Source: a virus. From it: 64,000 nt of DNA. Positions 29,626-62,723 of the stretch are shown here, one piece after another. The notes beneath the pieces were generated by a model. The model searched no databases. It saw only the letters and a program-made list of their open reading frames with translations, and was not told where the DNA came from. Within the stretch, counting starts at the first letter, position 1, and each line of letters begins with the position of its first letter. A program made the translations under genes and the position numbers. The DNA lies in the IMG/VR virus record IMGVR_UViG_3300005264_000009, positions 1 to 64,000 of that record; one strand, given 5' to 3'.

Positions 29626-30135
29626 TTGAATGAATTATCGTTATTTACAGGGATTGGTGGTGGCTTATTAGCCTCAAAATATTTATTAAAATGGAAAACA
29701 ATAGGGATGGTAGAATATGAAACGTATCCTCAAAAAGTGTTACAGCAAAGACAAAAAGATAAACTGCTTGATAAATGCCCCATCTTTGGGGATATCAGAA
29801 AATTTATCGATCAAGGGTATGCGGAAAGCTATAAGGGAATGGTTGATGTCATCACAGGAGGTTTCCCATGCCAACCATTTAGTGTTGCAGGAAAACAAAG
29901 AGGTGATGCAGACGAAAGAAATATGTGGGATGCCATGTGCAAAGTTATCGAAATCATCCAACCAAGATATGTATTGGCAGAAAATGTCCCAGGACTTATT
30001 TCATGTGGATACATCGGAACAGTCCTTAAAGATATTTCCCAAATCGGGTACAATGCGAGATGGCAAACTTTATCTGCAAAAGCCGTTAATGCCTGTCATA
30101 AAAGGCAAAGATTATGGATCTTTGCATATAAATAA
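29626..30135 (+). CDS. C5 cytosine methyltransferase, alpha chain (motifs I-VIII)
   Basis: LFTGIGG, GGFPCQ, ENV, HKRQRLWI; ends without motifs IX-X. Confidence 0.88.
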   Translation: MNELSLFTGIGGGLLASKYLLKWKTIGMVEYETYPQKVLQQRQKDKLLDKCPIFGDIRKFIDQGYAESYKGMVDVITGGFPCQPFSVAGKQRGDADERNMWDAMCKVIEIIQPRYVLAENVPGLISCGYIGTVLKDISQIGYNARWQTLSAKAVNACHKRQRLWIFAYK

Positions 30136-30586
30136 GAAAAATTTACCAACACCACGAGCATGTGATGGGTTAAGTAGTGGTATAACTGATGCTCTTTTTT
30201 CAGGTATAGGTTGGTATAGAATAAATAAAAAAGGTGAAAGGTTTGGTGTACGTTTAGCAGATGCTGTTTATGCTATTACACACTTAAATAAGAATAAAAA
30301 GTGTGATTCAAAAAATACATTATCATTAAAACCAAAAGGTGAAAAAGATGGGTTAAATCCTGATTGGGTTGAATGGTTAATGCATATGCCTATTGGTTGG
30401 ACAGATATAAAAGAGTTAAAAGAATTAATATGGCTTGATCCCTTAATTGATCCTCACCCTAAATTAAAAAGAACAACACAAAATAAAGTAAATAGAAGTT
30501 CAAGGCTTAAAGGAATAGGAAATGCCCAATATTGTTTAACAGTTTATTATGTTTGGCGTATTTTATTCTTAAAAAAAACATTTTAA
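29717..30586 (+). CDS. C5 methyltransferase beta chain (TRD, motifs IX-X) in overlapping +1 frame; true start uncertain
   Basis: LPTPRA.D, LNPDWVEWLM.MP.GWT, RLKGIGNA. Confidence 0.75.
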   Translation: MKRILKKCYSKDKKINCLINAPSLGISENLSIKGMRKAIREWLMSSQEVSHANHLVLQENKEVMQTKEICGMPCAKLSKSSNQDMYWQKMSQDLFHVDTSEQSLKIFPKSGTMRDGKLYLQKPLMPVIKGKDYGSLHINKKNLPTPRACDGLSSGITDALFSGIGWYRINKKGERFGVRLADAVYAITHLNKNKKCDSKNTLSLKPKGEKDGLNPDWVEWLMHMPIGWTDIKELKELIWLDPLIDPHPKLKRTTQNKVNRSSRLKGIGNAQYCLTVYYVWRILFLKKTF

Positions 30587-31935: not shown

Positions 31936-32313
31936 ATGAAAATTTATTTAGCTGTACCTTACATGAGTGATGACATTAATATTATTGAAGAACGTGTCAG
32001 ATTAGTTAATGAAATGGCTGGTAAGATAATGGAACTTGGGCATACTGTATTTAGTCCAATTTCACACAGTCATCCCATATCAAAGACTATGGAAACAAAG
32101 GATGATGCTTTCTGGATCAAACAAGATTATTCTTTTATAAAATGGTGTGATGTTCTTTGTATTTATCAATTAACAGGATGGGAAGAATCAAAAGGTATTA
32201 AAAAAGAAACAGCTTATGCTATGCTTTTAGATAAAACAGTATGTAATACTGAACATATATTTAAAAATAATATATATAATTGGAGAAATAAATATATTAA
32301 AGGAGTAAAATGA
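31936..32313 (+). CDS. DUF1937 / nucleoside 2-deoxyribosyltransferase-like protein
   Basis: IYLAVPY, VFSPI.HSH, W...D, CD, GWEESKG...E. Confidence 0.75.
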   Translation: MKIYLAVPYMSDDINIIEERVRLVNEMAGKIMELGHTVFSPISHSHPISKTMETKDDAFWIKQDYSFIKWCDVLCIYQLTGWEESKGIKKETAYAMLLDKTVCNTEHIFKNNIYNWRNKYIKGVK

Positions 32314-33074
32314 AATTTATAAATAAAATAATTTGTGGGGATTGTTTAGAGGTGATGGATCAGCTTATTGCAAATAATGTAAAAGTGGATGCTATTATTA
32401 CTGATCCACCGTTCGGAACTATCAGTAATTCTTGGGATGTGGTAATTCCTATAGATAAAATGTGGGAAAGATTAAATAAATTAATAAAAAAGAAAGGGGC
32501 TACGGTTATATTCGGCACTGAACCATTCTGCTCAAAAGTTAGAATAGCAAATTTAGATAATTATAAGTATGATTGGGTTTGGGAAAAATCTGGTGTTGGG
32601 GGTTATCTTTTAGCAAAAACACGTCCCTTAACAAATTATGAAAATATAATGGTATTTTATCAAGCCCCTCTACATGGTAATGGTGGTGACGATAACGGAA
32701 ATTATTATCCACAAGGTACTAAAAAAACAAAAAAATGGGTAAAAACACCAAGAAGAATCACTCCATGCAACAGATCAATATCTAAAAAAGAAGTAATATT
32801 ACAAGATACAACAAATTATCCTAAACGAATTTTACGTTTTAACAAAGAGCCTTTAAGTCTTCACTCTTCCCAAAAACCTTTAAATTTAATGGATTACTTG
32901 GTAAAAACGTACACTAAAGAGGGTGAAACAGTCCTTGACTTCACCTGCGGTTCAGGAAGTACACTTGTATCTTGCAAACGTAATAAAAGGCAATTTATAG
33001 GTATAGAACAAGACAGTAAATTTGTAGATATATCTAAAAAAAGATTAAACAATATAACATTAAATTTATTTTAA
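32310..33074 (+). CDS. Beta-class N4/N6 DNA methyltransferase (intact)
   Basis: GDCLE, ITDPPF, HSSQKP, VLDFTCGSG. Confidence 0.9.
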   Translation: MKFINKIICGDCLEVMDQLIANNVKVDAIITDPPFGTISNSWDVVIPIDKMWERLNKLIKKKGATVIFGTEPFCSKVRIANLDNYKYDWVWEKSGVGGYLLAKTRPLTNYENIMVFYQAPLHGNGGDDNGNYYPQGTKKTKKWVKTPRRITPCNRSISKKEVILQDTTNYPKRILRFNKEPLSLHSSQKPLNLMDYLVKTYTKEGETVLDFTCGSGSTLVSCKRNKRQFIGIEQDSKFVDISKKRLNNITLNLF

Positions 33075-40945: not shown

Positions 40946-41620
40946 ATGGATCGTAACCATCAAATTACACCACACCTTAAAATTATGAAAAAAATTAAGA
41001 AAATCAAAAGTGATCGTAGTTTACAGGAATTATTAGTAAATAAAGATTGTACGTTTAAGTGCCCTATAAAAGGGTATCAAACTATAATCGAAATTTGCCA
41101 TTACTGTAACGTGTATAACTCTTGTGATGTATTTACTAAGGCAGAAAAGGTTTTGCTAAGTGAACATACATTACAATTACCAGTACCATATACTGTACCA
41201 AAAAAGGGGACTAAAATGAAGAAAAAAGATGTAAAAGATGTAAAGGAAGAAAAAGATGTAAAGGAAGTTAAGGAAGTTAAGGAAGAAAAAGATGTAAAGG
41301 AAGTTAATAAAAATAAAGAAAAACCAAATGATCCTAACAAGGTCAGCCAAAAGAAATTTAAGGAACATTCCAACATCTTAAATAAAATTTTGGTTGAAAA
41401 TAAATTAAAGAAAATCAAAAAAAGTAAATCAAAAAAACAATCAATAATGAACTTCATGGCATCTTTTACTGAATTAAATGATGCTAACCTTTTATATTTA
41501 ATTCCAAGAGGAACTATCAATGTAATGTGTGTGTTCCTAAGTGATAGAATTGAATGGTTGGAAAAAGAAAAAGCAAAAAAAGAAAAGGAGGAAAAAGTAG
41601 AAAAAAATGTATCTAAATAA
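40946..41620 (+). CDS. Hypothetical protein with KDV/KEV repeats
   Basis: Cys-rich start, low-complexity middle; start uncertain. Confidence 0.6.
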   Translation: MDRNHQITPHLKIMKKIKKIKSDRSLQELLVNKDCTFKCPIKGYQTIIEICHYCNVYNSCDVFTKAEKVLLSEHTLQLPVPYTVPKKGTKMKKKDVKDVKEEKDVKEVKEVKEEKDVKEVNKNKEKPNDPNKVSQKKFKEHSNILNKILVENKLKKIKKSKSKKQSIMNFMASFTELNDANLLYLIPRGTINVMCVFLSDRIEWLEKEKAKKEKEEKVEKNVSK

Positions 41621-42575
41621 TATCATTTCTTGTTTTGATGGTATAAGTTGTGCTCAAATTGCTCTTGAATATGCTGGTATTGTATTTGATAATTATTTTG
41701 CATCTGAAACAGATAAATCTGCAATAAAAGTTACGCAAAGTAATTATCCTAATACAATACAGATTGGTGATATTACAAAAATAAATACCAATAAGTTACC
41801 ACAAATAGATTTGATTATTGGTGGTAGCCCTTGTCAAGGTTTTTCACAGTCGGGGAAAAAATTGAATTTTACCGATCCAAGAAGTAAATTATTTTTTGAT
41901 TACGTTAAACTTTTAAAAAAAATAAAACCTAAATATTTTTTATTAGAAAACGTAAAAATGAAAAAAAAATGGAGTGATACAATAACACAATATTTAGGTG
42001 TTCATCCAATAGAAATAGATAGTACATTAGTTTCTGCCCAAAAAAGAAAAAGATTGTATTGGACGAACATACCAAATGTTACACAACCAAAAAACAAACA
42101 TATTTTTCTTAAAGATATTATTGAAAATGATGTTAATACAAAGTATTTTTTAACAGCTAAAGATATAAATATTGAAAAAGCTAAAAAACAAAATATGGTT
42201 GTTGCTTTCACCGAAAGAAGAACACGAGAAGCCAAAAGTATAAGAAAAGATTATCAAAAAAAGTATAATACTGATTTTTCGCCAAGAAGAGGTAAAGAAT
42301 TAATACATAGAATAGATGGTAAAATGAATTGTTTAACAGCCACTTATTCATTGAAAGAACATACTTTACTTGATAAACAAATGAATTATAGGAAATTAAC
42401 ACCAATAGAATTTGAGAGATTGCAAAATGTTCCTGATAATTACACACATTTATTAAGTGATAATTTAAGGTACAAAGTATTAGGTAATGGTTTTACAGTG
42501 TGTGTAATTGCACATATTTTAAAATGTATAAATAATAAGAATAATAAAATTAATGTAATAAAAAACTTATTTTAA
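41607..42575 (+). CDS. C5 cytosine DNA methyltransferase
   Basis: FDGISC, GGSPCQ, LENV, RKRLYW, ERLQ, LGNG. Confidence 0.92.
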   Translation: MYLNNIISCFDGISCAQIALEYAGIVFDNYFASETDKSAIKVTQSNYPNTIQIGDITKINTNKLPQIDLIIGGSPCQGFSQSGKKLNFTDPRSKLFFDYVKLLKKIKPKYFLLENVKMKKKWSDTITQYLGVHPIEIDSTLVSAQKRKRLYWTNIPNVTQPKNKHIFLKDIIENDVNTKYFLTAKDINIEKAKKQNMVVAFTERRTREAKSIRKDYQKKYNTDFSPRRGKELIHRIDGKMNCLTATYSLKEHTLLDKQMNYRKLTPIEFERLQNVPDNYTHLLSDNLRYKVLGNGFTVCVIAHILKCINNKNNKINVIKNLF

Positions 42576-42578
42576 GAG

Positions 42579-43610
42579 GTGAAAATGAATATTAACGATT
42601 TGAAAGATGCTTTAAATATTGTTAAACCAGCATTGAATCCAAATGGAATGAACACTGCATCAGAATATATTTACTTTTCTGGTGAAAAAGTAATGATTAG
42701 TGACCAATCTATGTGTATTCAAACAGATTTGGAAACATCATTTGATGCTTGGATTAAAGGTAAAGATTTAATAAATATTGTTTCTAAAATAAAAAACAAT
42801 AAAATTAAATTCAGTAAAAAAGATAACAATATTAATTTACAAACAAAAACGTCAAATATTAACTTTAAGTTAGAAGAAGTTATTGATGATTATAATACTT
42901 ATATAAATAGTATTGTTGATGAAAGTACAAGTGATGATTATACCAATATACCAGATGACTTCTTGGAAAATATCTTGGTTGCATCAAAATATTGCCTTAG
43001 TGATGACTTTGATAGTTCTTTAGCTTGCGTGGGTGTTAAGGATGGTATTATAAGTGCAATGGATAAAAAACAAGCATTTACCACAACAAGTAAGATAGAA
43101 GTCGATGATATGCTATTAATGTGTACTACTGTTAAAAAAATAGTAGAAATTAAACCCACTAAATATTTTATATCTGAAAATTGGTATCACTTTAAAAATG
43201 ATATATCGGTTATTTCTATAAGAAAAACTGATGGTGAGTTACCATCATTGCAGAAAATAACATCATTTACGGGGCAGAAATTCAATATTTATGCATCTAT
43301 TCTTGATGATATAACCCTTACAGCATCATTTACAGACCATTTTTTGACTTTTATTAAGGTAAAGTTAAGAGATAACAAAATCCAATTAAGTATTAATGCA
43401 GAGTCAGGAACAATTAAAACACAAGCTAAAATAAATTATAGTGATGATGAATTAATTTTTAAAATTAATCCTGAATACTTTGCTAACTTAGTAGAGAATT
43501 GTACAGACTTTGAGATTAACGAGGATAGTACACTTCTAAAGGGTGTTTCTGATACGGCAATAATAGTAGCAGCCTTATTTAATACACAAGAGACGGAAAC
43601 GTATGAATAA
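42579..43610 (+). CDS. DNA sliding clamp (Pol III beta-like)
   Basis: 343 aa, three-domain clamp-like pattern (LKDALNIV.P, INP.YF), replication context. Confidence 0.6.
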   Translation: MKMNINDLKDALNIVKPALNPNGMNTASEYIYFSGEKVMISDQSMCIQTDLETSFDAWIKGKDLINIVSKIKNNKIKFSKKDNNINLQTKTSNINFKLEEVIDDYNTYINSIVDESTSDDYTNIPDDFLENILVASKYCLSDDFDSSLACVGVKDGIISAMDKKQAFTTTSKIEVDDMLLMCTTVKKIVEIKPTKYFISENWYHFKNDISVISIRKTDGELPSLQKITSFTGQKFNIYASILDDITLTASFTDHFLTFIKVKLRDNKIQLSINAESGTIKTQAKINYSDDELIFKINPEYFANLVENCTDFEINEDSTLLKGVSDTAIIVAALFNTQETETYE

Positions 43611-43698
43611 ACGTTTTAGATTGTACAATGGTGATTGCCTTGAAATTATGGATAGATTGATAGGTGAGAATGTTATGGGATATCTAATACATGGATAA
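43603..43698 (+). pseudogene. Orphan N-terminal fragment of a beta-class MTase
   Basis: MNKRFRLYNGDCLEIMDRLIGENVMGYLIHG*. Confidence 0.65.
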
Positions 43699-44500
43699 AA
43701 AAAACATTAAGGAGAAAATACCATACGGTGTGGTTATTAATGATAGCTATAGTTTGTATAATGGTGATTGCTTAGATGTCATGGACTATCTAATATCACA
43801 AAACATTATATGTGATGCTATTATCACAGACCCACCGTATGGTTGAGTTAGTACTACTGCTTGTTCATGGGATTCATTAATTCCATTTGAACCTATGTGG
43901 AATAAAATATATAAACTTATTAAAGATAAAGGAACAATAGTTTTATTTGGAAGTGAACCTTTCAGTAGTCACTTACGTATGAGTAACATTAAAAATTATA
44001 GTTATGATTGGGTTTGGAATAAAAAAAAGGCAGGTAATATTTTCTTAATAAAAAGTCAACCCTTACGTGTACATGAAAATATAATAATTTTTAATGGTAA
44101 CAAAGACACTTATAATAGTCAAAAAACAAAAAGGAGTACAATAAAAAAATCAAAAAATTATGGTAGTGGTGAAACTATGCTTGGGGAACATAAAAGTAAC
44201 AAAATATATACTTATAAAGATAGACATCCTATAAGTATAATAAAAGTAAGTAATGCAAGTCAAAAAAATAACTTACACCCCACACAAAAACCTGTTCGTT
44301 TATTAGAATACTTAGTTAAAACATATTCAAAAGAAAATGAACTTGTTTTAGACTTTACTACAGGGTCAGGAACAACAGGTGTAGCTTGTTTAAATAATAA
44401 TCGAAGATTTATTGGTATTGAAAAAGAAAAAAAATATTGTAAAATAGCCAGTCAAAGATTAAATGAAGCATCTCAATGTTTTATATTTGAAGGGAGTTAA
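43691..44500 (+). CDS. Beta-class N4/N6 DNA methyltransferase with in-frame TGA and 9-nt insert after DPPYG
   Basis: LYNGDCL..ITDPPYG-TGA GTT AGT-TTACSWD..HPTQKP..VLDFTTGSG in one frame; single stop at 43844. Confidence 0.75.
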
Positions 44501-44506
44501 TTGAAA

Positions 44507-44725
44507 ATGAGTGTTATGTCTTGTGCAAGAAATGGTTGTAAAAATATAATGTGTTATAGGTCTTGCAGATATGGTTATATTTGCAATGAATGTTTTGATG
44601 AGCTTGTATTAAGTGGTCCTGAAACAAATTTAGAGCTTTTTATGAAATCAATTAAAACCTATAATTGTGAAAAAGAAAAAGAAGCAGCTTTTGCACGTTT
44701 TGATATTGAATGTTCTGTTTTTTAA
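44507..44725 (+). CDS. Cys-rich hypothetical protein
   Basis: MSVMSCARNGC.NIMC..GYIC.ECF. Confidence 0.65.
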   Translation: MSVMSCARNGCKNIMCYRSCRYGYICNECFDELVLSGPETNLELFMKSIKTYNCEKEKEAAFARFDIECSVF

Positions 44726-45183: not shown

Positions 45184-47844
45184 ATGGATTTATTCAATAC
45201 AGCGGAATTAAACGATGCAAAAATAAAGGTAAACCCTAATCATTTACAGCCAAATTGTAAAAAATGTGATTTAAATAAAGCACCTAAAATAGAAGTTTCA
45301 GGAGAGGGTAAAAAAGAAATTCTTGTTATAGGAGAATCAACATTAAATGAGGAAATGACTTATGGAAGTGCTTTTGTTGATGATACAGGATTTCTTTTAA
45401 ATAAAATACTAAGAAAACAAAACATATCTTTAAATAAAGATTGTTGGAAAATAAATGCTGTTAAATGTTATTCACATATAAAAACCAATCATAAACAAAT
45501 AAATTGTTGCCGACCAGCATTAGAAAAACTTATATATAAATTAAAACCCAAAACAATATTATTATGTGGAGATGTGGCTGTAACATCATTATTTGGAGAA
45601 GATTTTTCTAATAGAAGTATTTTTCGTTGGAGAATGTATTGTATTCCTGATGAAAAATATAAGTGTAATATTATACCCATTTTACACCCACGTTATGTTT
45701 TAGATAATGATAAAGATAGTGGTATGTATCGACAATACGAAAGAGATGTTACAAAAGCATGTTATTTAATGAAAAGACCTTTTCTTAAAAACAAAAAGTA
45801 TGAATCTTACGTTACTGTTGTTACTGACTTTACTAAATTAAAACGTATTTTAACTAAAGTAATAAAAAACAAAACAAAAATAGCTTATGATTATGAAACT
45901 ACAGGTTTAAAACCATATAGAAATAGACAAAAAATAGTAACAATAGCATTTGCCGTAAGTATGACAAAAGCATTTGCTTTTCCATTTGATTATAAAACTT
46001 TTTGGACAGAAAAAGAACGTAATGAAATTTACACATTATGGCAAACAATTTTAAGAGATGATAAAATAAATAAAATAGCTTATAACGAAAAATTTGAAAA
46101 AATCTGGTCAATGGAAATTTTCAAAGCAAAACCCAAATGTTTTTTTGATCCTATGATAGTTTTGCACATTTTAGACAACCGTAGTGGCATATTAGGATTG
46201 AAATTCCAAACATTTGTAAATTATGGTGTAAGACCATATGATAAACATATTCAAAAATACTTAAAGGCAAAAAAAGCAAGTGATTATAACAGTGTTGAGG
46301 AAGCCCCCTTTAACGACTTATTGATTTATAATGGCTTGGATTGTATCTTTACATATATGTTATATGACGAATTAATGGGTAAATTAGGAAAAAACAGTGA
46401 ATTATTAAGTGCTTATAATTTCTTTATTCGTGGGTTAGATATTATGGCTATTATGCAACATAATGGAATACCTGCAAGTGCTGATTATTATGAACAAACA
46501 GATGTTTACTTGCACGAAAAAATACAAAAATTAGAAACAGAATTAATGACAGGTAGAGAAGCCACAAAATTTAAAGAAAAGTATAAAAGAGATATTAAAA
46601 TCAAGTCAAATCAAGACTTAGGTAAGCTGTTTTACGAGGTTTTGGGTAAGCCAGCTATAAAGACTTCTAAAGGTAATTACAAGACAGATAAACCTACCTT
46701 AGAGACACTTAAACTACCCTTTGTAGATAAACTCTTAGATATTAAAAAATACGAAAAAGCAAAGGGTACTTACTTGGGGCAATTTAAACGAGAGATTGTA
46801 AGTAATAAAATACATCCCTTTTTTAATTTACACTTACCTGTTTCATACAGATCAAGTGCAAGTAGTCCTTCATTTCAAAATATACCAAAAAGAGATCCTG
46901 AAATATCTAATTTAGTTAGAAAAGGTTTATTTGCACCTAAAAATTGTGTTATTTCAGAAACGGATTTTTCTGGAAGTGAAATTATTGGTTCTGCAAGTTG
47001 TCATCGTGATCCTAATTTTATTCATTATTTACAAAACCCTGAAACAGACATGCATAGAGATATTGCCGAAGATATTTGGCAATTACCAAAAGACATGTTA
47101 AACGATCCTAATTATAATAAGGAACAGAAAAAGAAAGCAAAAATGATAAGATTTTTTGCTAAAAATAATTGGACTTTTGCTCAATTTTATGGAGACTGGT
47201 TTCTACCTTGTGGTACAAATTTGTGGGAAAATGTTATTAATGGTAATTTAGAACTACCAACAGGTCAATCAGTACTTGATTACACAAATGAAAAAGGTAT
47301 TTACGAGCTTGGAGAGATAATACAAGGTGTTGTAACACCTGGAAGTTTTCTTGACCATCTGAAAAAAGTTGAAAAGAAAATGTGGTATGATAGATTTCCA
47401 CAATATACACAATGGAAAAATGACATATACGAGCAATATCAAGATTATGGTTATATTGAAAACCACTTTGGATTTAGATTTACGGGTTATATGTCAAAAA
47501 ATCAATGCTGTAATTATCCCATACAATCTGTTTCATTTCATCTTTTACTTGATTCTTTAATTGTATTATATAAGAGTTTACGTAAACACAAAATGAAAAC
47601 AAAATTAATAGGACAGATACATGATTCTTGCTTGGCTATTGTACCAGAAAATGAAATTGTAACATACCATACTATTGTACATGATATTATTGCTAATTTA
47701 CATAATAAATTTAAGTGGATGGTTGTTCCAATGGATTCAGAAATAGAAATATCTAAATTAGGTAAAAATGGTGGGAACTTTACTGAAATGAGTGAAATTT
47801 CTATAACAGATATTCAAGAAGGTAAATATAAAGCAATTATATAA
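45184..47844 (+). CDS. Family A DNA polymerase with N-terminal UDG-family-4-like domain and 3'-5' exonuclease
   Basis: C..C.L/GE/HP UDG-like region; DYETTG; YNGLD; DFSGSE, R..AK....F...YG, QIHDS. Confidence 0.93.
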   Translation: MDLFNTAELNDAKIKVNPNHLQPNCKKCDLNKAPKIEVSGEGKKEILVIGESTLNEEMTYGSAFVDDTGFLLNKILRKQNISLNKDCWKINAVKCYSHIKTNHKQINCCRPALEKLIYKLKPKTILLCGDVAVTSLFGEDFSNRSIFRWRMYCIPDEKYKCNIIPILHPRYVLDNDKDSGMYRQYERDVTKACYLMKRPFLKNKKYESYVTVVTDFTKLKRILTKVIKNKTKIAYDYETTGLKPYRNRQKIVTIAFAVSMTKAFAFPFDYKTFWTEKERNEIYTLWQTILRDDKINKIAYNEKFEKIWSMEIFKAKPKCFFDPMIVLHILDNRSGILGLKFQTFVNYGVRPYDKHIQKYLKAKKASDYNSVEEAPFNDLLIYNGLDCIFTYMLYDELMGKLGKNSELLSAYNFFIRGLDIMAIMQHNGIPASADYYEQTDVYLHEKIQKLETELMTGREATKFKEKYKRDIKIKSNQDLGKLFYEVLGKPAIKTSKGNYKTDKPTLETLKLPFVDKLLDIKKYEKAKGTYLGQFKREIVSNKIHPFFNLHLPVSYRSSASSPSFQNIPKRDPEISNLVRKGLFAPKNCVISETDFSGSEIIGSASCHRDPNFIHYLQNPETDMHRDIAEDIWQLPKDMLNDPNYNKEQKKKAKMIRFFAKNNWTFAQFYGDWFLPCGTNLWENVINGNLELPTGQSVLDYTNEKGIYELGEIIQGVVTPGSFLDHLKKVEKKMWYDRFPQYTQWKNDIYEQYQDYGYIENHFGFRFTGYMSKNQCCNYPIQSVSFHLLLDSLIVLYKSLRKHKMKTKLIGQIHDSCLAIVPENEIVTYHTIVHDIIANLHNKFKWMVVPMDSEIEISKLGKNGGNFTEMSEISITDIQEGKYKAII

Positions 47845-47856
47845 AAGGAGAGATAA

Positions 47857-48900
47857 ATGAAAAATTACAAATTAACAAATCATGTTAAACAGATAGAAGT
47901 ATTTAACAATGGCAAAAAAGAGATTAAAACACTATATCAAATACAAGCTATTAAAGATATTGGTGATATAAAAAAAGGTCAATTAGGTGGTTATATTGAA
48001 AAAGAAAGTAATTTATCAGGTAATGCTTGGGTTTACCCATATGCAGTAGTTTATGATAATGCTATAGTTTCTGGGATGGCAAGAATACTGCACATTTCTA
48101 AAGTGTATGGTAATGCTATTATCACACATAATGCAAAAGTGTTTCATGATGCTCAAGTATATGGAAGTGCTATAATACGTGATGATGCTACTGTAGGTGG
48201 TGTTGCCCGTGTTTATGATAATGCCATAATTACAGGAAGTGTTGAAATTGTTGGTGCTAAAGTATTTAATTGTGCACAAGTAGAAGATAATGCACGTATT
48301 TATAATAGTGCTAAAGTATATGGTGATAGTCGGGTTTATCAAAATGCTGTAGTAGCATCTAATGCAAAAATTTTTGGATATAGTGAAATTTATGGTAATG
48401 CAAAAATTTATGGTAATGCTAAGGTTTATGATATAGCCGAAGTTTTTGGAAATGCTTTAGTTTTTGATAACGCTTGTATTTACAATAGTGCTAAAGTATA
48501 TGGTAATAGTGAAGTTTGTGGAAATGCTGAAATTTTTGATCATGCAGAAGTTTACGGAAAAGGAAAAGTATCTTGTTATTCTAAAGTTCATAATAATGAT
48601 GTTATTATAAGTAATTTAAACACAAAAAATAAAACAAAAGAAAAACAAGATGTAACAAGTATTATAAAGAAAAAAAGACACAATATTAATGATGAAGTTT
48701 GGCTTATCAGAGATGCTAAAGTAAAAAAATTAATTGTTTTTGAAGTTATAGAAAGAATGTCTGATGCTTTCTATAATAATGAAATTGATACTATTTATAA
48801 GTTAAGTAAAACAAGAGAGGATTGGAATAATAGTATATATGAGACATATAAAGAGAGATATGTTTTTGGAAGTAAACAAGAATTAATTGCTTCTTTATAA
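47857..48900 (+). CDS. LbH hexapeptide-repeat protein with C-terminal domain
   Basis: QIQAIKD..KKGQLGGYIEKESNL, xNAxVY repeats. Confidence 0.88.
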   Translation: MKNYKLTNHVKQIEVFNNGKKEIKTLYQIQAIKDIGDIKKGQLGGYIEKESNLSGNAWVYPYAVVYDNAIVSGMARILHISKVYGNAIITHNAKVFHDAQVYGSAIIRDDATVGGVARVYDNAIITGSVEIVGAKVFNCAQVEDNARIYNSAKVYGDSRVYQNAVVASNAKIFGYSEIYGNAKIYGNAKVYDIAEVFGNALVFDNACIYNSAKVYGNSEVCGNAEIFDHAEVYGKGKVSCYSKVHNNDVIISNLNTKNKTKEKQDVTSIIKKKRHNINDEVWLIRDAKVKKLIVFEVIERMSDAFYNNEIDTIYKLSKTREDWNNSIYETYKERYVFGSKQELIASL

Positions 48901-49543: not shown

Positions 49544-49753
49544 ATGTACGAGGCAACAAAATCAGAGCGTGAAAAATTAATAGAAGTATATGATTACACA
49601 CATGAAGCAATCAACAAACTTGATATTGCAAGTGATAAAGTTAGGAAAGGAATAACTATCGATTTTATGTTGGCTACTATTGTTTGTGAATATCAGTCAA
49701 AACTACAGAGAATACGTAAATCTAAAAAAAACTGGTGGCAATTTTGGTTGTAA
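49544..49753 (+). CDS. Hypothetical protein
   Basis: AAGGG RBS; ends KKNWWQFWL. Confidence 0.6.
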   Translation: MYEATKSEREKLIEVYDYTHEAINKLDIASDKVRKGITIDFMLATIVCEYQSKLQRIRKSKKNWWQFWL

Positions 49754-50013
49754 ATGAATTATACGATAAAGATACAGAAAAAATAGATGCAAAGAAGTTA
49801 CACACTTTTTTAAACATTGAAACAAGTTATTTTGATTGGTTTAATGAAGAGGTTGAAAATAAAACTATAATTAGTGTTTCTTCAAATTCTACTTGGGAAG
49901 TCAAGTCTGGATTTTTTATGTCTATTCAGGATGCAAAAAATATAACAATGAAAGTGAAAAATTACAGAGGGTATAAGGCAATTAATTTTTTAAATACGTT
50001 AAAAACTTCTTGA
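49735..50013 (+). CDS. AntA/AntB antirepressor-like protein
   Basis: IDAKKLHTFL.I.T.Y.DW, S...AK.I.M. Confidence 0.65.
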   Translation: MAILVVNELYDKDTEKIDAKKLHTFLNIETSYFDWFNEEVENKTIISVSSNSTWEVKSGFFMSIQDAKNITMKVKNYRGYKAINFLNTLKTS

Positions 50014-50082
50014 CTTTTTAATAAAAACGTGTTATACGTAGTTATAACAATCAATAATAACATTTACGAAAGGATTTTGCTT

Positions 50083-50946
50083 ATGAAAAGTGACTCACAC
50101 TTCATTCTAACAAGTTTTGTTAGACAAGTAGAAGTTGTTAAAAATGGTAAAAAAGAAAATATATACTTACGACAAATACAAGCTATTAAAGATTTTGGTT
50201 ATGTAAAAAAAGGTCAATTAGGTGGGTATATTGAAAAAGAAAGTAATTTAAAAGATAGAGCTTGGGTATATAATAATGCATGTGTTTATAATAATGCTGT
50301 AGTATCTGAAAATGCACATATACAACATAATACACGAGTTTTTGGGAGTGCACAAGTACGAAATAATGCTATAATATCTGGAAGTGCATATATTTATGAT
50401 AATGCAATGGTATATGGGAATGCCATGGTATATGGAAATGCAAAAATATATAATAGTGCTAAAATTTTTGATCGATCAAAAATTTATGGGAATGCAATGG
50501 TATATGGAAATGCAATGGTATATGGAAATGCAAAAATATATAATAGTGCTAAAATTTTTGATCGATCAAAAATTTATGGGAATGCACAGGTTTATGATAT
50601 TTCACTGGTATATGGAAAAGCTAAAATTTCTGGTAATACACATGTTTTTGGTGATGCAGAGGTATATCGTGATGATCTAATTTACGATGATATTATTAAT
50701 AAAGAAGTAAACAAACAGTGTTCAAAAGTAAAACATAAAATATTTGATCACGTTTGGGTAATAGTAAATAATAAAATAAAAAAGTTATCTATATTTCTAA
50801 TTAAAGAAGTTGCTGTTTCATTTGATGAAACACAAATATTTTATGAATTAAGTGAATCAATGGATCAGTGGCGAAAAGATAATTACGTAAACGTGCAAGC
50901 AGATCTTCTTTTTCAATCAAAAGAGGATTTAATAAAATCTTTATAA
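50083..50946 (+). CDS. LbH hexapeptide-repeat protein, paralogue of 47857
   Basis: QIQAIKD..KKGQLGGYIEKESNL; near-exact 90-nt tandem duplication 50401-50580. Confidence 0.88.
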   Translation: MKSDSHFILTSFVRQVEVVKNGKKENIYLRQIQAIKDFGYVKKGQLGGYIEKESNLKDRAWVYNNACVYNNAVVSENAHIQHNTRVFGSAQVRNNAIISGSAYIYDNAMVYGNAMVYGNAKIYNSAKIFDRSKIYGNAMVYGNAMVYGNAKIYNSAKIFDRSKIYGNAQVYDISLVYGKAKISGNTHVFGDAEVYRDDLIYDDIINKEVNKQCSKVKHKIFDHVWVIVNNKIKKLSIFLIKEVAVSFDETQIFYELSESMDQWRKDNYVNVQADLLFQSKEDLIKSL

Positions 50947-61139: not shown

Positions 61140-61877
61140 ATGGAAATTAATTATATTGAATATAAAAATAAGGCTTATTGCAAATCTATTGGTTGTGATA
61201 AATTTTACTGTAAAGATTGTGGTGCTTATAGATTTCACGAGTATTTACAGGAAAACAATTTTTTAATAATTAAAAAAGATTCTGAAATTATTACAAGAAA
61301 TAATTATGATTTAATGTTCAGGAAAAAAGTAAAACATGATTTTATTAATTATATTTTTGTTAATAAAAAAACAAAAAAGGTACTGGCTCAACCCCCTTTT
61401 AAAACCACAAAATATGTGTCAATAATAGAAAAGGATAATGAAGTTTTAATTACAGATTATATAAAAGATAAAGAAGTAAAAATGGTTTATATAATTGATA
61501 AAGATGAATGGCATTTGATAAGTACACAAAATGTTATTAAACCATCTTTTAAAAATTTAATAGCAAAACAAATAAGTAATGTAGCAAAAAACAGAAAAGA
61601 TATTTTATCTGCTTTAGATGATTATTTTAAGGGATACAGTGATAAACAAATAGTAAGTGATAATACTACTATTTATAATATACCAGTGTTTAATATAAAA
61701 GTGTATGTTAATGTACTTGATACACACATTACTTTTTCTCTTATGGGACAAATGAAAAAGATAAATACTGTATATAGTTTTGTAAATGAACAAGATATAC
61801 CTTGTATTATGAAAGATTTAGATACTAAAATATACAATGTTTTAATTGAAGGTGATTTAAATGATCAAAATATTTAA
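61140..61877 (+). CDS. Mosaic hypothetical protein (59264-like N-terminus, 20701-like C-terminus)
   Basis: Shared motifs with both families. Confidence 0.75.
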   Translation: MEINYIEYKNKAYCKSIGCDKFYCKDCGAYRFHEYLQENNFLIIKKDSEIITRNNYDLMFRKKVKHDFINYIFVNKKTKKVLAQPPFKTTKYVSIIEKDNEVLITDYIKDKEVKMVYIIDKDEWHLISTQNVIKPSFKNLIAKQISNVAKNRKDILSALDDYFKGYSDKQIVSDNTTIYNIPVFNIKVYVNVLDTHITFSLMGQMKKINTVYSFVNEQDIPCIMKDLDTKIYNVLIEGDLNDQNI

Positions 61878-61962
61878 GGGTGATTGTTTAACTGTAATGG
61901 ATCAATTAATATTGGATGGTGTTAAGGTGGATGCAGTAATAACAGATCCACCTTTACAATAA
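61861..61962 (+). pseudogene. Beta-class MTase N-terminus ending at DPP
   Basis: MIKIFKGDCLTVMDQLILDGVKVDAVITDPP-LQ*, close to the 32310 N-terminus; AAGGTG RBS. Confidence 0.75.
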
Positions 61963-61977
61963 GGGGTACAATTAAAT

Positions 61978-62595
61978 ATGAAAAATAAAATAATTAAAGA
62001 GTATATTGCAGGAGTTACCTCTTTAAGAGAGGTTGCTATTATCTGTGGGACTGACCATCACAATGTGAAGAGAACATTAATTAAAGCAAATATAACGATA
62101 GTAAGAGCCAAGACAAAAGCACATACAAAAGCACATTGTAAAGCTATATCTAAGGCATGCAAAGGTAGAAAATGTTGGGTTAAGGGTAAAAAAATGCCAA
62201 AAGCATCACTTTACAAGAACATGTCTGCACACTTAAAGTGGGACGTTACATCAGAATGGTTGGCGAAGTTTGATGACATCGAAAAACTTAAATTTATAAA
62301 CAGGGCTATAACAAACAGGGATGGTAGGTATCCGTTTACAACAGATGAGTATAAAGAATACATAAATAAGTTTTATAATGATCTGAAATTCAACACACTT
62401 TACAAGAAGTGGTTGGGGACTAACAATAAATATTTGAAACCATCATTAGATCATATAATTCCAAAGTCAAAAGGTGGTACTAATAACTTAGATAATTTAC
62501 AGTTTCTAAGTTGGTTTGAAAATAGATGTAAAAGTGATATGTCTCAAAAGGAATGGGATTTACTTAAGAATAATATAAGCGATTATTTAATGTGA
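61978..62595 (+). CDS. HNH homing endonuclease with NUMOD3-like motif
   Basis: HTKAHCKAISKACKG; SLDHIIPKSKGG.N.L.NLQ....EN..K. Confidence 0.88.
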   Translation: MKNKIIKEYIAGVTSLREVAIICGTDHHNVKRTLIKANITIVRAKTKAHTKAHCKAISKACKGRKCWVKGKKMPKASLYKNMSAHLKWDVTSEWLAKFDDIEKLKFINRAITNRDGRYPFTTDEYKEYINKFYNDLKFNTLYKKWLGTNNKYLKPSLDHIIPKSKGGTNNLDNLQFLSWFENRCKSDMSQKEWDLLKNNISDYLM

Positions 62596-62723
62596 AGATT
62601 AAATAATATATCAGGTAATTCACTTTTTTATTAAAAACTTCTTGACTTCCTAATAAAAACGTGTTAAGACTTTAATCAAGATAACAAAGGTATTTTTAAT
62701 TACTACTTTATAAAGGAGCTATT

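Follow-up and report, generated by a model that had tools for sequence, protein, structure and literature searches.

A stop-containing nine-base gap in a phage DNA methyltransferase gene: a probable HNH homing-cassette insert and a candidate for short ribosomal hopping

To our knowledge, programmed bypassing has been proven in very few natural genes: gene 60 of phage T4 and its relatives, inserts in yeast mitochondria and, in part, phiHau3. Bonocora et al. reportedly described the T4 gene 60 bypass together with the mobA element in 2011. In the available portion of a more recent study, the 50-nucleotide (nt) gap of the T4 mobA/gene 60 cassette guards against the nuclease, take-off occurs at a Gly codon directly before a stop, and lineages exist that lack the nuclease and have kept the gap (bioRxiv 10.1101/2022.08.31.505936). 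Here we describe a much shorter gap, the nine bases TGA GTT AGT, in a DNA methyltransferase gene of the IMG/VR virus record IMGVR_UViG_3300005264_000009, of whose 87,209 bases the first 64 kb (positions 1 to 64,000, hereafter the window; G+C 27.9%, nearly all genes on the + strand) were analyzed. Comparison across 156 loci makes it well supported, and in our judgment very probable, that the nine-base insert represents the gap of a mobile HNH homing-endonuclease cassette targeting the junction DPPYG/TTAC(K/S)WD of phage beta-class methyltransferase genes. The fuller proposition, that the gap confers immunity on the homing cassette and that ribosomes decode it by hopping a short way over the stop, from GGU to AGU, is one that we consider evenly poised.

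Free-standing phage homing endonucleases spread by cutting alleles that lack them (intronless homing), and are often lost afterwards. The location of the HNH gene beside or inside its target gene is in keeping with such elements, as far as the accessible descriptions go. These endonucleases usually protect their own allele by sequence differences, an intron or an intein, whereas the methylase cassette would do so by means of a stop-containing mini-gap; we know of such a mini-gap inside coding sequence, as a form of allele protection, only from T4 gene 60. A second point of comparison is the synthetic stop-hop, which Weiss et al. are said to have constructed in E. coli in 1987. In these reporters matched codons flank the stop, and the accessible part of a 2016 review states that no natural in-frame stop hopping is known (PMC5009743). 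The methylase gaps would operate alike, with a tRNA that leaves its codon when a stop occupies the A site and pairs again a few bases downstream, and the six-nt gaps (GGT TGA GGA) have exactly the same form; as far as that review describes them, the E. coli examples were made in reporters, whereas the methylase pattern is natural, conserved and variable in length. Short gaps in a phage gene are also found in the large terminase of Streptomyces phage phiHau3, where, in the available text, 10-nt coding gaps are bridged by bypassing and the junction peptide was identified by mass spectrometry in E. coli. There, unlike in the methylase genes, the trigger is a rare UUA codon rather than a stop, a role as sensor of host state is proposed, and the same text describes no homing endonuclease (PMC10732093). 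The sections available of a paper on lactococcal phage methylases mention neighboring HNH genes and no gap, and the literature in the form accessible to us yielded no published link between methyltransferases and translational bypassing.

The bases from 43829 of the window onward are exactly those given in the preliminary description: GAC CCA CCG TAT GGT at 43829-43843, TGA GTT AGT at 43844-43852 and, from 43853, ACT ACT GCT TGT TCA TGG GAT. Translation table 11 splits the gene into an open reading frame (ORF) at 43691-43846 (51 amino acids (aa), ending in DPPYG and the stop) and an open frame at 43853-44500 (215 codons), for which gene callers choose ATG 43895 as the start (201 aa); protein P0004 in the database is this 201-aa rump of the window's methylase. 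Read through with X, 43691-44500 gives 269 residues that match PF01555 (N6_N4_Mtase) end to end, with residues 42-254 on profile positions 2-220 of 221, at 122.3 bits against a cut-off of 26.7. The frame is open from 43853 to 44500, in keeping with the earlier statement that the frame is preserved and the rest of the gene looks undamaged. DPPYG occupies residues 47-51, before DFTTGSGTTG near the C end; we take these to be the catalytic DPPY motif and the S-adenosylmethionine (AdoMet)-binding FxGxG motif. The parts of the gene, and the gene used for comparison, are these:

43691..43753, + strand: cassette-specific N-terminal extension MDKKNIKEKIPYGVVINDSYS of the new front, absent from gapless methylases
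43754..43843, + strand: methylase-homologous part of the new front, ending in DPPYG (43829-43843), by sequence, PF01555 and homologue alignment
43841..43843, + strand: GGT, the last sense codon before the stop and proposed take-off codon (Gly), by sequence
43844..43852, + strand: 9-nt gap TGA GTT AGT of the stop-first class, with the stop at 43844-43846 and the proposed landing AGT at 43850-43852
43853..44500, + strand: methylase body, 215 codons plus stop, TTACSWD through DFTTGSGTTG, with proposed resumption at ACT 43853, by PF01555 and tree
32310..33074, + strand: intact gapless paralogue, DPPFG-TISNSWD, the comparison gene, by PF01555 and alignment

The nine bases are a true insert, because in 116 of 118 motif-bearing proteins (116 homologues and the window's two genes, one of them insert-bearing) DPP[YF]G is followed directly by five residues and WD; three extra residues occur only in the window gene and in P0084. 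The collinearity earlier claimed with the intact paralogue holds in coordinates and sequence alike, at 45% identity between the two genes. Nor is the insert an assembly error, since assemblies from three studies agree on its bases: a contig of 978 nt from another study (X2) spans 43555-44532 with 0 differences, and one of 1174 nt from a third (X3) spans 43502-44675 and differs by 3 substitutions (read in frame, two are synonymous and the third changes Leu to Phe) and by one 1-nt deletion, all outside the gap. TGA is, as stated at the outset, a normal stop elsewhere: it ends 11 of the 79 + strand ORFs of at least 90 aa in the window, with TAA ending 61 and TAG 7. Genome-wide recoding of TGA was considered and rejected on this count and because table 4 lengthens about 10 + strand genes by only 2-34 codons and fuses two pairs. 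A search for tRNA genes in the window gave none, and Rfam, elements of the selenocysteine insertion sequence (SECIS) type and introns included, gave 0 matches at gathering level there, with only a chance-level riboswitch match near the gene.

The gap belongs to a class. Three collections were scanned with one IUPAC pattern, made up of the DPPYG codons, 1-30 extra bases and the TTAC.WD codons, in which the extra bases, between GGN and ACN ACN, were unconstrained. The scan gave 26 viral, 12 genome and 117 metagenome loci, which together with the window make 156 loci, or 126 unique sequence contexts and 57 distinct types of take-off codon plus gap. The insert begins with a stop in 154 of the 156 (TGA 99, TAG 38, TAA 17), against an expectation of about 5% for a random triplet, and stop-first inserts are therefore due neither to chance nor to random damage; the only non-stop inserts are those of L092 (AATGGG) and L169 (GGC). 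Recurrence of stop-containing inserts at exactly this codon, with flanks under purifying selection, is what the preliminary description had suggested looking for among homologues, and both were found. By number of loci, the inserts measure 3 nt (1), 4 (4), 5 (6), 6 (14), 7 (8), 8 (11), 9 (87), 10 (13) and 11 (12); the length is not a multiple of three in 54 of 156 loci, and 13 of the 14 six-nt gaps are stop-first.

The far end of the gap is also constrained. Among the 126 unique contexts, the last three insert bases are GGN in 107, AGY in 13, another xGx triplet in 5 and GTT in 1, with G as the middle base in 125. The take-off codon, whose GGN form is imposed by the design of the search pattern, is GGC in 65, GGT in 55, GGA in 5 and GGG in 1. 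Across the 57 types, the take-off codon and the last gap codon have GG in common in 46 and are the same in 15; in 9 they agree by letter at one position or none. Downstream, the frame set by ACN ACN runs on without a stop for at least 180 codons, or as far as the contig reaches, in 151 of the 156 loci; upstream, the only N-terminal part that is shorter than 30 aa and does not touch a contig end is that of L068 (26 aa). Near-duplicates apart, pairwise identity among the bodies of the first 38 loci is only 39-87%, so the class is not one recent broken gene. A protein-based search for close relatives in cultured phages and IMG/VR gave only gapless genes, 43-59% identical.

Some members of the class are unusual in their own right. 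Six contigs of one Leptolyngbyaceae metagenome-assembled genome (L051, L052, L054, L059, L060 and L061) each bear a methylase that is interrupted by the 5-nt gap TGAGC and is not accompanied by an HNH gene. Five of the copies are near-identical; the body of L061 is 72% identical and its front end almost the same, a pattern suggestive of gene conversion or of a mobile unit present in several copies. In run X1 of the source sample, at a loose end at window position 43868, another methylase contig reads ..CCA TAT TGA GC GGC ACG ACT..; here the TGAGC gap, again stop-first, lies a codon further upstream and follows Tyr instead of Gly, so that take-off would not be from a Gly codon. Two database proteins, P0092 and P0123, start with MRSFATRLIDG and continue as TTACKWD.., with foreign sequence right up to the gap junction; they may be the bodies of genes interrupted by something larger.

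The link to an HNH nuclease was tested by tblastn with the window's HNH protein (61978-62595) against the gap loci. In 84 loci a homologue ends 106-304 nt before the D codon, the full-length homologues being 39-63% identical; in 41 loci the HNH gene is absent despite at least 900 nt of upstream sequence, and 31 loci are too short to tell. Where it is present, its stop overlaps the start of a short new methylase 5' end, which begins with an extension absent from gapless methylases and then continues through DPPYG as far as the gap. Upstream of the HNH gene, an old front end is still present in L026, L033, L035, L039, L046, L047 and L055, and that of L033 is broken right after DPPYG. As reconstructed from these loci, the order of the intact unit is old front, HNH, new front (with the cassette extension, and ending in DPPYG), a 4-11-nt stop-first gap and the invaded body. 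One alternative raised at the start, that the nine bases are the scar of an excised element, comes closer to this picture, in that the insert belongs to an HNH cassette which also supplies the present 5' end of the gene; the gap of the element has, however, been kept, not left by its excision.

Only 3 phage records matched the HNH protein at E<=1e-5, and none of them is T4-like; the methylase-cassette HNH is therefore not a close relative of MobA. Among these three records, no cultured phage with the full cassette was found. At 1807-2624 of Vibrio phage VnaP (L181), a 40-aa methylase stub (..LTDLP, then a stop) lies directly before the HNH gene with no methylase body after it, like the arrangement at window position 61861; in Pseudoalteromonas phage H101 (L180), at 748-2612, the HNH gene is downstream of a complete methylase. 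The HNH homologues of VnaP and H101 are 57-62% identical to that of the window.

By alignment, the window copy is a decayed cassette, in which the HNH gene has been deleted in frame and its tail fused to 24 codons of the old front. Bases 43675-43698 align with the HNH 3' ends of L035 and L049; the alignment also covers the stretch where these ends overlap the ATG of the new front. A tail of about 24 nt is all that is left of HNH at the interrupted methylase; an intact HNH gene lies 18 kb away. The region 61861-62634 shows the reverse decay, with a front stub, an intact HNH gene and only the last 12 methylase codons, and this second HNH copy (61978), judged by the flanking stubs, is sitting inside another methylase gene that it destroyed. 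The remnants at the two places are as follows:

43603..43674, + strand: remnant of the earlier (pre-invasion) methylase 5' end, 24 codons MNKRFRLYNGDCLEIMDRLIGENV, 52% identical to methylase residues 16-40 and stopping short of the DAIITDPPYG stretch
43675..43698, + strand: last ~24 nt of the deleted HNH gene, fused in frame to the old-front remnant (MGYLIHG, then a stop that overlaps the methylase start, as in intact cassettes), by alignment with the L035 and L049 HNH 3' ends
61861..61962, + strand: 5' stub of a third methylase gene (PF01555-type), broken after DPP (..VITDPPLQ, then a stop), by methylase homology
61978..62595, + strand: HNH endonuclease gene of the cassette family, without a gap-bearing methylase downstream (PF01844, 25.3 bits against a cut-off of 21.4)
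62596..62634, + strand: 3' stub of the methylase displaced by HNH, last 12 codons RLNNISGNSLFY and stop, aligning with the paralogue 3' end ..RLNNITLNLF and stop

The front and the body of the window gene have different relatives. Its new front (the extension and the next 30 codons) is 67-73% identical to the MNKENQHKE..PYGVV fronts of L151, L125, L035, L067, L091 and others. Gaps of this subtype include TAGCTTGGA, TAACTTGGA, TAGTTTCGC, TAAGTTTGC, TAATTAGT (8 nt) and TAGCTTAGGA (10 nt); the first codon varies among TAG, TAA and TGA and is always a stop, the rest of the gap is variable, and lengths of 8 and 10 nt occur (L109, L163, L049). The window body, by comparison, is at most 56% identical to other gap-bearing bodies and 64-66% identical, over the whole protein, to the best gapless proteins. 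In a FastTree phylogeny whose 114 gapless rows are the window's nearest matches, a biased sample used only to place the window, the body falls in a set with Shimodaira–Hasegawa-like (SH-like) support 96 that comprises 100 rows, 99 gapless and the window. Homing predicts just such a difference in history between front and body. Use of the same tree to count independent invasions was rejected, given only 4 label changes and the biased sampling.

The parallels with T4 gene 60/mobA, to the extent that the available account covers that system, are threefold: an HNH cassette sits in a conserved enzyme gene and supplies a new N-terminal piece to the downstream part; a non-coding gap comes right after a Gly codon and a stop (GGT TGA in the window, stop-first in 154/156 of the class); and there are copies that have lost the nuclease and kept the gap. 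The differences are equally clear. The target is a DNA methyltransferase instead of a topoisomerase, the gap is 4-11 nt (9 in the window) instead of 50 nt, there is no take-off stem-loop in the window, and the landing codon is not always matched; moreover, bypassing is proven for gene 60, whereas for the methylase it is proposed.

How would such a gap arise and be tolerated? By splitting the nuclease target into two halves, it would render the invaded gene immune to re-cutting, the role that has been reported for the T4 gene 60 gap. During translation, with UGA in the A site, peptidyl-tRNA(Gly) would leave GGU 43841, slide 9 nt and re-pair with AGU 43850 by two of three base pairs (positions 2 and 3); decoding would resume at ACU 43853 and yield the normal DPPYG-TTACSWD enzyme, probably at a lower level. 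Landing on GUU, with Ser added, could be an alternative. For the class at large, tRNA(Gly) would leave GGN at the stop, re-pair at the next GGN-like triplet and resume at ACN, which would restore the canonical DPPYG-TTAC loop. Gaps in all three phases, all three stops and a near-invariant xGx before the resume codon together form a signature of bypassing, and for gap lengths of 4-11 nt one bypass mechanism fits all, whereas readthrough or a single frameshift does not. An AGY-type landing like that of the window is found also in L109 (8 nt, AGT) and in the AGC group (TAGC, TGAGC, TAGTTAGC, TGAATTAGC), which, except for L034, lack the HNH gene.

The T4 gene 60 bypass is the nearest known parallel to the stop-first methylase gap, and we infer the stop-hop as the best mechanism for its decoding; homing-cassette immunity and decoding by a hop, taken together, we hold with about as much belief as doubt. 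Somewhat more tentatively, and with the balance tipping slightly against, the class may represent the first natural family of short stop-hops. An HNH cassette would install a 4-11-nt gap whose only fixed features are a stop after Gly and an xGx landing (usually GGN) ahead of the resume codon, and the gap would be bridged without a gene-60-like stem-loop, perhaps helped by a slow DPP-Y-G nascent chain and the cassette N-terminal extension. In the other, short-loop, front-end subtype, a helix about 29-74 nt upstream is paired in 78.6% of cells; the figure is about 40% in slid controls and averages 58% over 18 gapless controls. Within it, 8 pairs show two-sided changes, and this helix, defined on one member, is absent from the window's subtype.

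Selection bears on whether these genes are made into protein. In the 25 codons before DPPYG, the ratio of nonsynonymous to synonymous differences (pN/pS) is 0.27 (pN 0.206, pS 0.771; 95 unique tails, 2153 pairs). The cassette-only extension gives 0.19 (pN 0.066, pS 0.344; 36 unique fronts of the commonest cassette type), and the methylase-like codons 22-43 in fronts of that type give 0.16. Because the extension has no counterpart in gapless genes, its selection signal cannot have been borrowed from functional parents. Bodies downstream of the gap give a pooled pN/pS of 0.20 over 5 close pairs (0.56, 0.05, 0.29, 0.32, 0.11), in all of which the gap is identical or differs by one base. These three selection tests argue against a dead gene and suggest that both gene parts are translated.

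Several observations weigh against decoding by a hop. The landing triplet of the window, AGT, is like the take-off GGT at 2/3 positions and is not cognate for tRNA(Gly), and gap endings other than GGN, to which it belongs, are a minority of the class. RNA around the window site folds no better than its shuffles (z 0.54, 0.46, -0.92), and no gene-60-like take-off hairpin was found in the window. Among the sequencing runs listed as containing this stretch, none is of RNA. Simple stop-hops in E. coli run at about 1%. The downstream frame is truncated inside the contig in 5/156 loci (L068, L073, L093, L106 and L115). In the X3 contig (depth ~6), the A8 run at 43697, in codons 3-5 of the methylase, is one A shorter, which would break the N-terminal extension, although this may be either a homopolymer error or a real variant; furthermore, the AAGGAG Shine-Dalgarno that precedes the new front of L035 is, by alignment, degenerated in the window. 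The body test is small, with 5 ungapped pairs at 80-99.5% identity among 106 unique bodies, and selection signals, chiefly that of the 25-codon test, could come in part from re-copying of functional gapless genes during homing. Such re-copying from intact genes is described for T4-like elements in the accessible part of the T4 study (bioRxiv 10.1101/2022.08.31.505936). The likeness to gene 60 bypassing proposed in the preliminary description therefore stands in part: the Gly codon and stop, the AGY ending shared by 13/126 contexts and the fit to all gap phases speak for it, while a gene-60-like RNA structure and a cognate landing codon are missing from the window, and we infer the hop rather than observe it.

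Of the competing explanations, the most serious is that the gap is a selfish scar in a dead gene, protecting from the nuclease and nothing else, with no methylase made and with frames that are open owing to recent invasion and slow decay. We consider this unlikely. The different histories of front end and body are what homing into fresh genes would produce, as illustrated by L051 and L061, which share front and gap over bodies 72% identical; 5/156 bodies are truncated; and the window itself has lost its HNH gene, has a weakened ribosome binding site, shows a frame-breaking A-run variant in one assembly and carries at 32310 an intact gapless paralogue that could cover the function. An immunity insert, however, needs no initial stop, yet 154/156 start with one, and TGA, TAG and TAA interchange within one subtype. 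A gene-killing cassette would moreover gain nothing from a spare 5' end, yet the extension peculiar to that end shows a pN/pS of 0.19; the bodies of close gap-bearing pairs, at 0.20, point the same way, and the 41 HNH-less loci include only one of the five truncated bodies (L068).

If the gene is alive, it might be expressed by means other than a hop. For the in-frame window copy, readthrough of UGA by a near-cognate tRNA would give an enzyme with three extra residues (x-V-S) after DPPYG. The window gap is a multiple of three, as are the 87 nine-nt and 14 six-nt gaps, and P0084, of the same cassette subtype, is recorded as DPPYG-QLG-TTACKWD, in which the Q may be a TAG taken as Gln by the gene caller. 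As a mechanism for the class, plain readthrough, which had been listed among the early alternatives, is ruled out by gaps of 4, 5, 7, 8, 10 and 11 nt. It is improbable for the window as well, given the 8- and 10-nt gaps in the same subtype, the 54/156 gaps that are not multiples of three, the use of all three stops, for which no single suppressor fits, and the position of the insert in a catalytic loop that is insert-free in 116/118 motif proteins. A split enzyme, in which translation stops and restarts nearby and a front peptide of about 50 residues assembles non-covalently with the body, as in T4 gp39 and gp60, is slightly less probable again. The front peptide is itself subject to purifying selection, an ATG overlaps the Tyr-Gly codons in the body frame where a gap of 3n+1 follows TAT GGT (L031: MVEIGTTACKWD), and the T4 element also splits its target gene, according to the part of the study available (bioRxiv 10.1101/2022.08.31.505936). 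Start codons, however, are not conserved within the gaps or close to them, where the codons after the stop are ATA, CTT, ATC, AAC, GTT or absent; in the window, the first in-frame start, ATG 43895, would drop the conserved TTACSWDSLIPFEP, and no Shine-Dalgarno is read from the sequence ahead of the body. Least credible, even taken together, are the remaining routes: that TGA is reassigned genome-wide or read as selenocysteine, that a micro-intron or RNA editing is involved, that the ribosome shifts frame by +1/-1, or that the gap is an assembly artefact. The methylase frame is indeed open under table 4, but TGA ends 11/79 ORFs, table 4 extensions are short and no tRNA gene was found in the window; no Rfam family, SECIS and introns included, reaches threshold there; relatives have TAG or TAA where the window has TGA; the bases are identical in three assemblies; and frameshifting would need shifts of different sign for different gap lengths.

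The class, with more than 100 natural variants of a minimal bypass site that cover every gap length of 4-11 nt, three stops and several landing codons, provides a ready-made mutational series for the requirements of ribosome take-off and landing. Should the stop-hop be confirmed, the GGU-to-AGU copy of the window would mean that pairing at two positions is enough for landing and that the device persists after its nuclease is lost. It would also provide a second, independent case of a homing endonuclease and a coding gap that travel together, a hint that selfish phage DNA uses "immunity by bypass" as a general strategy. There is a practical side as well: because gene callers split or truncate gap-bearing methylases, inventories of phage methylases and epigenetic predictions of host range miss them.

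The methylase neighborhood is a replication module, with a C5 methylase (41607-42575), a clamp-like gene (42579-43610) and a family A DNA polymerase (45184-47844). The polymerase, of 886 aa, joins an N-terminal domain of the uracil-DNA-glycosylase superfamily, a 3'-5' exonuclease and the family A domain in one protein. Further on, at 49735-50946, an AntA-domain ORF ends with TGA in frame with the following beta-solenoid (YdcK/hexapeptide repeat) gene, which has a paralogue at 47857-48900. This second in-frame TGA (49735/50029) was considered as a case of recoding and rejected, since the paralogue (47857-48897) aligns only from residue 125 on; because the paralogue at 47857 lacks the AntA part, the AntA-domain gene and the beta-solenoid gene are separate and not recoded. 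Elsewhere in the window, the region 29626-30586 holds two long overlapping + strand ORFs, at 29626-30135 and 29717-30586.

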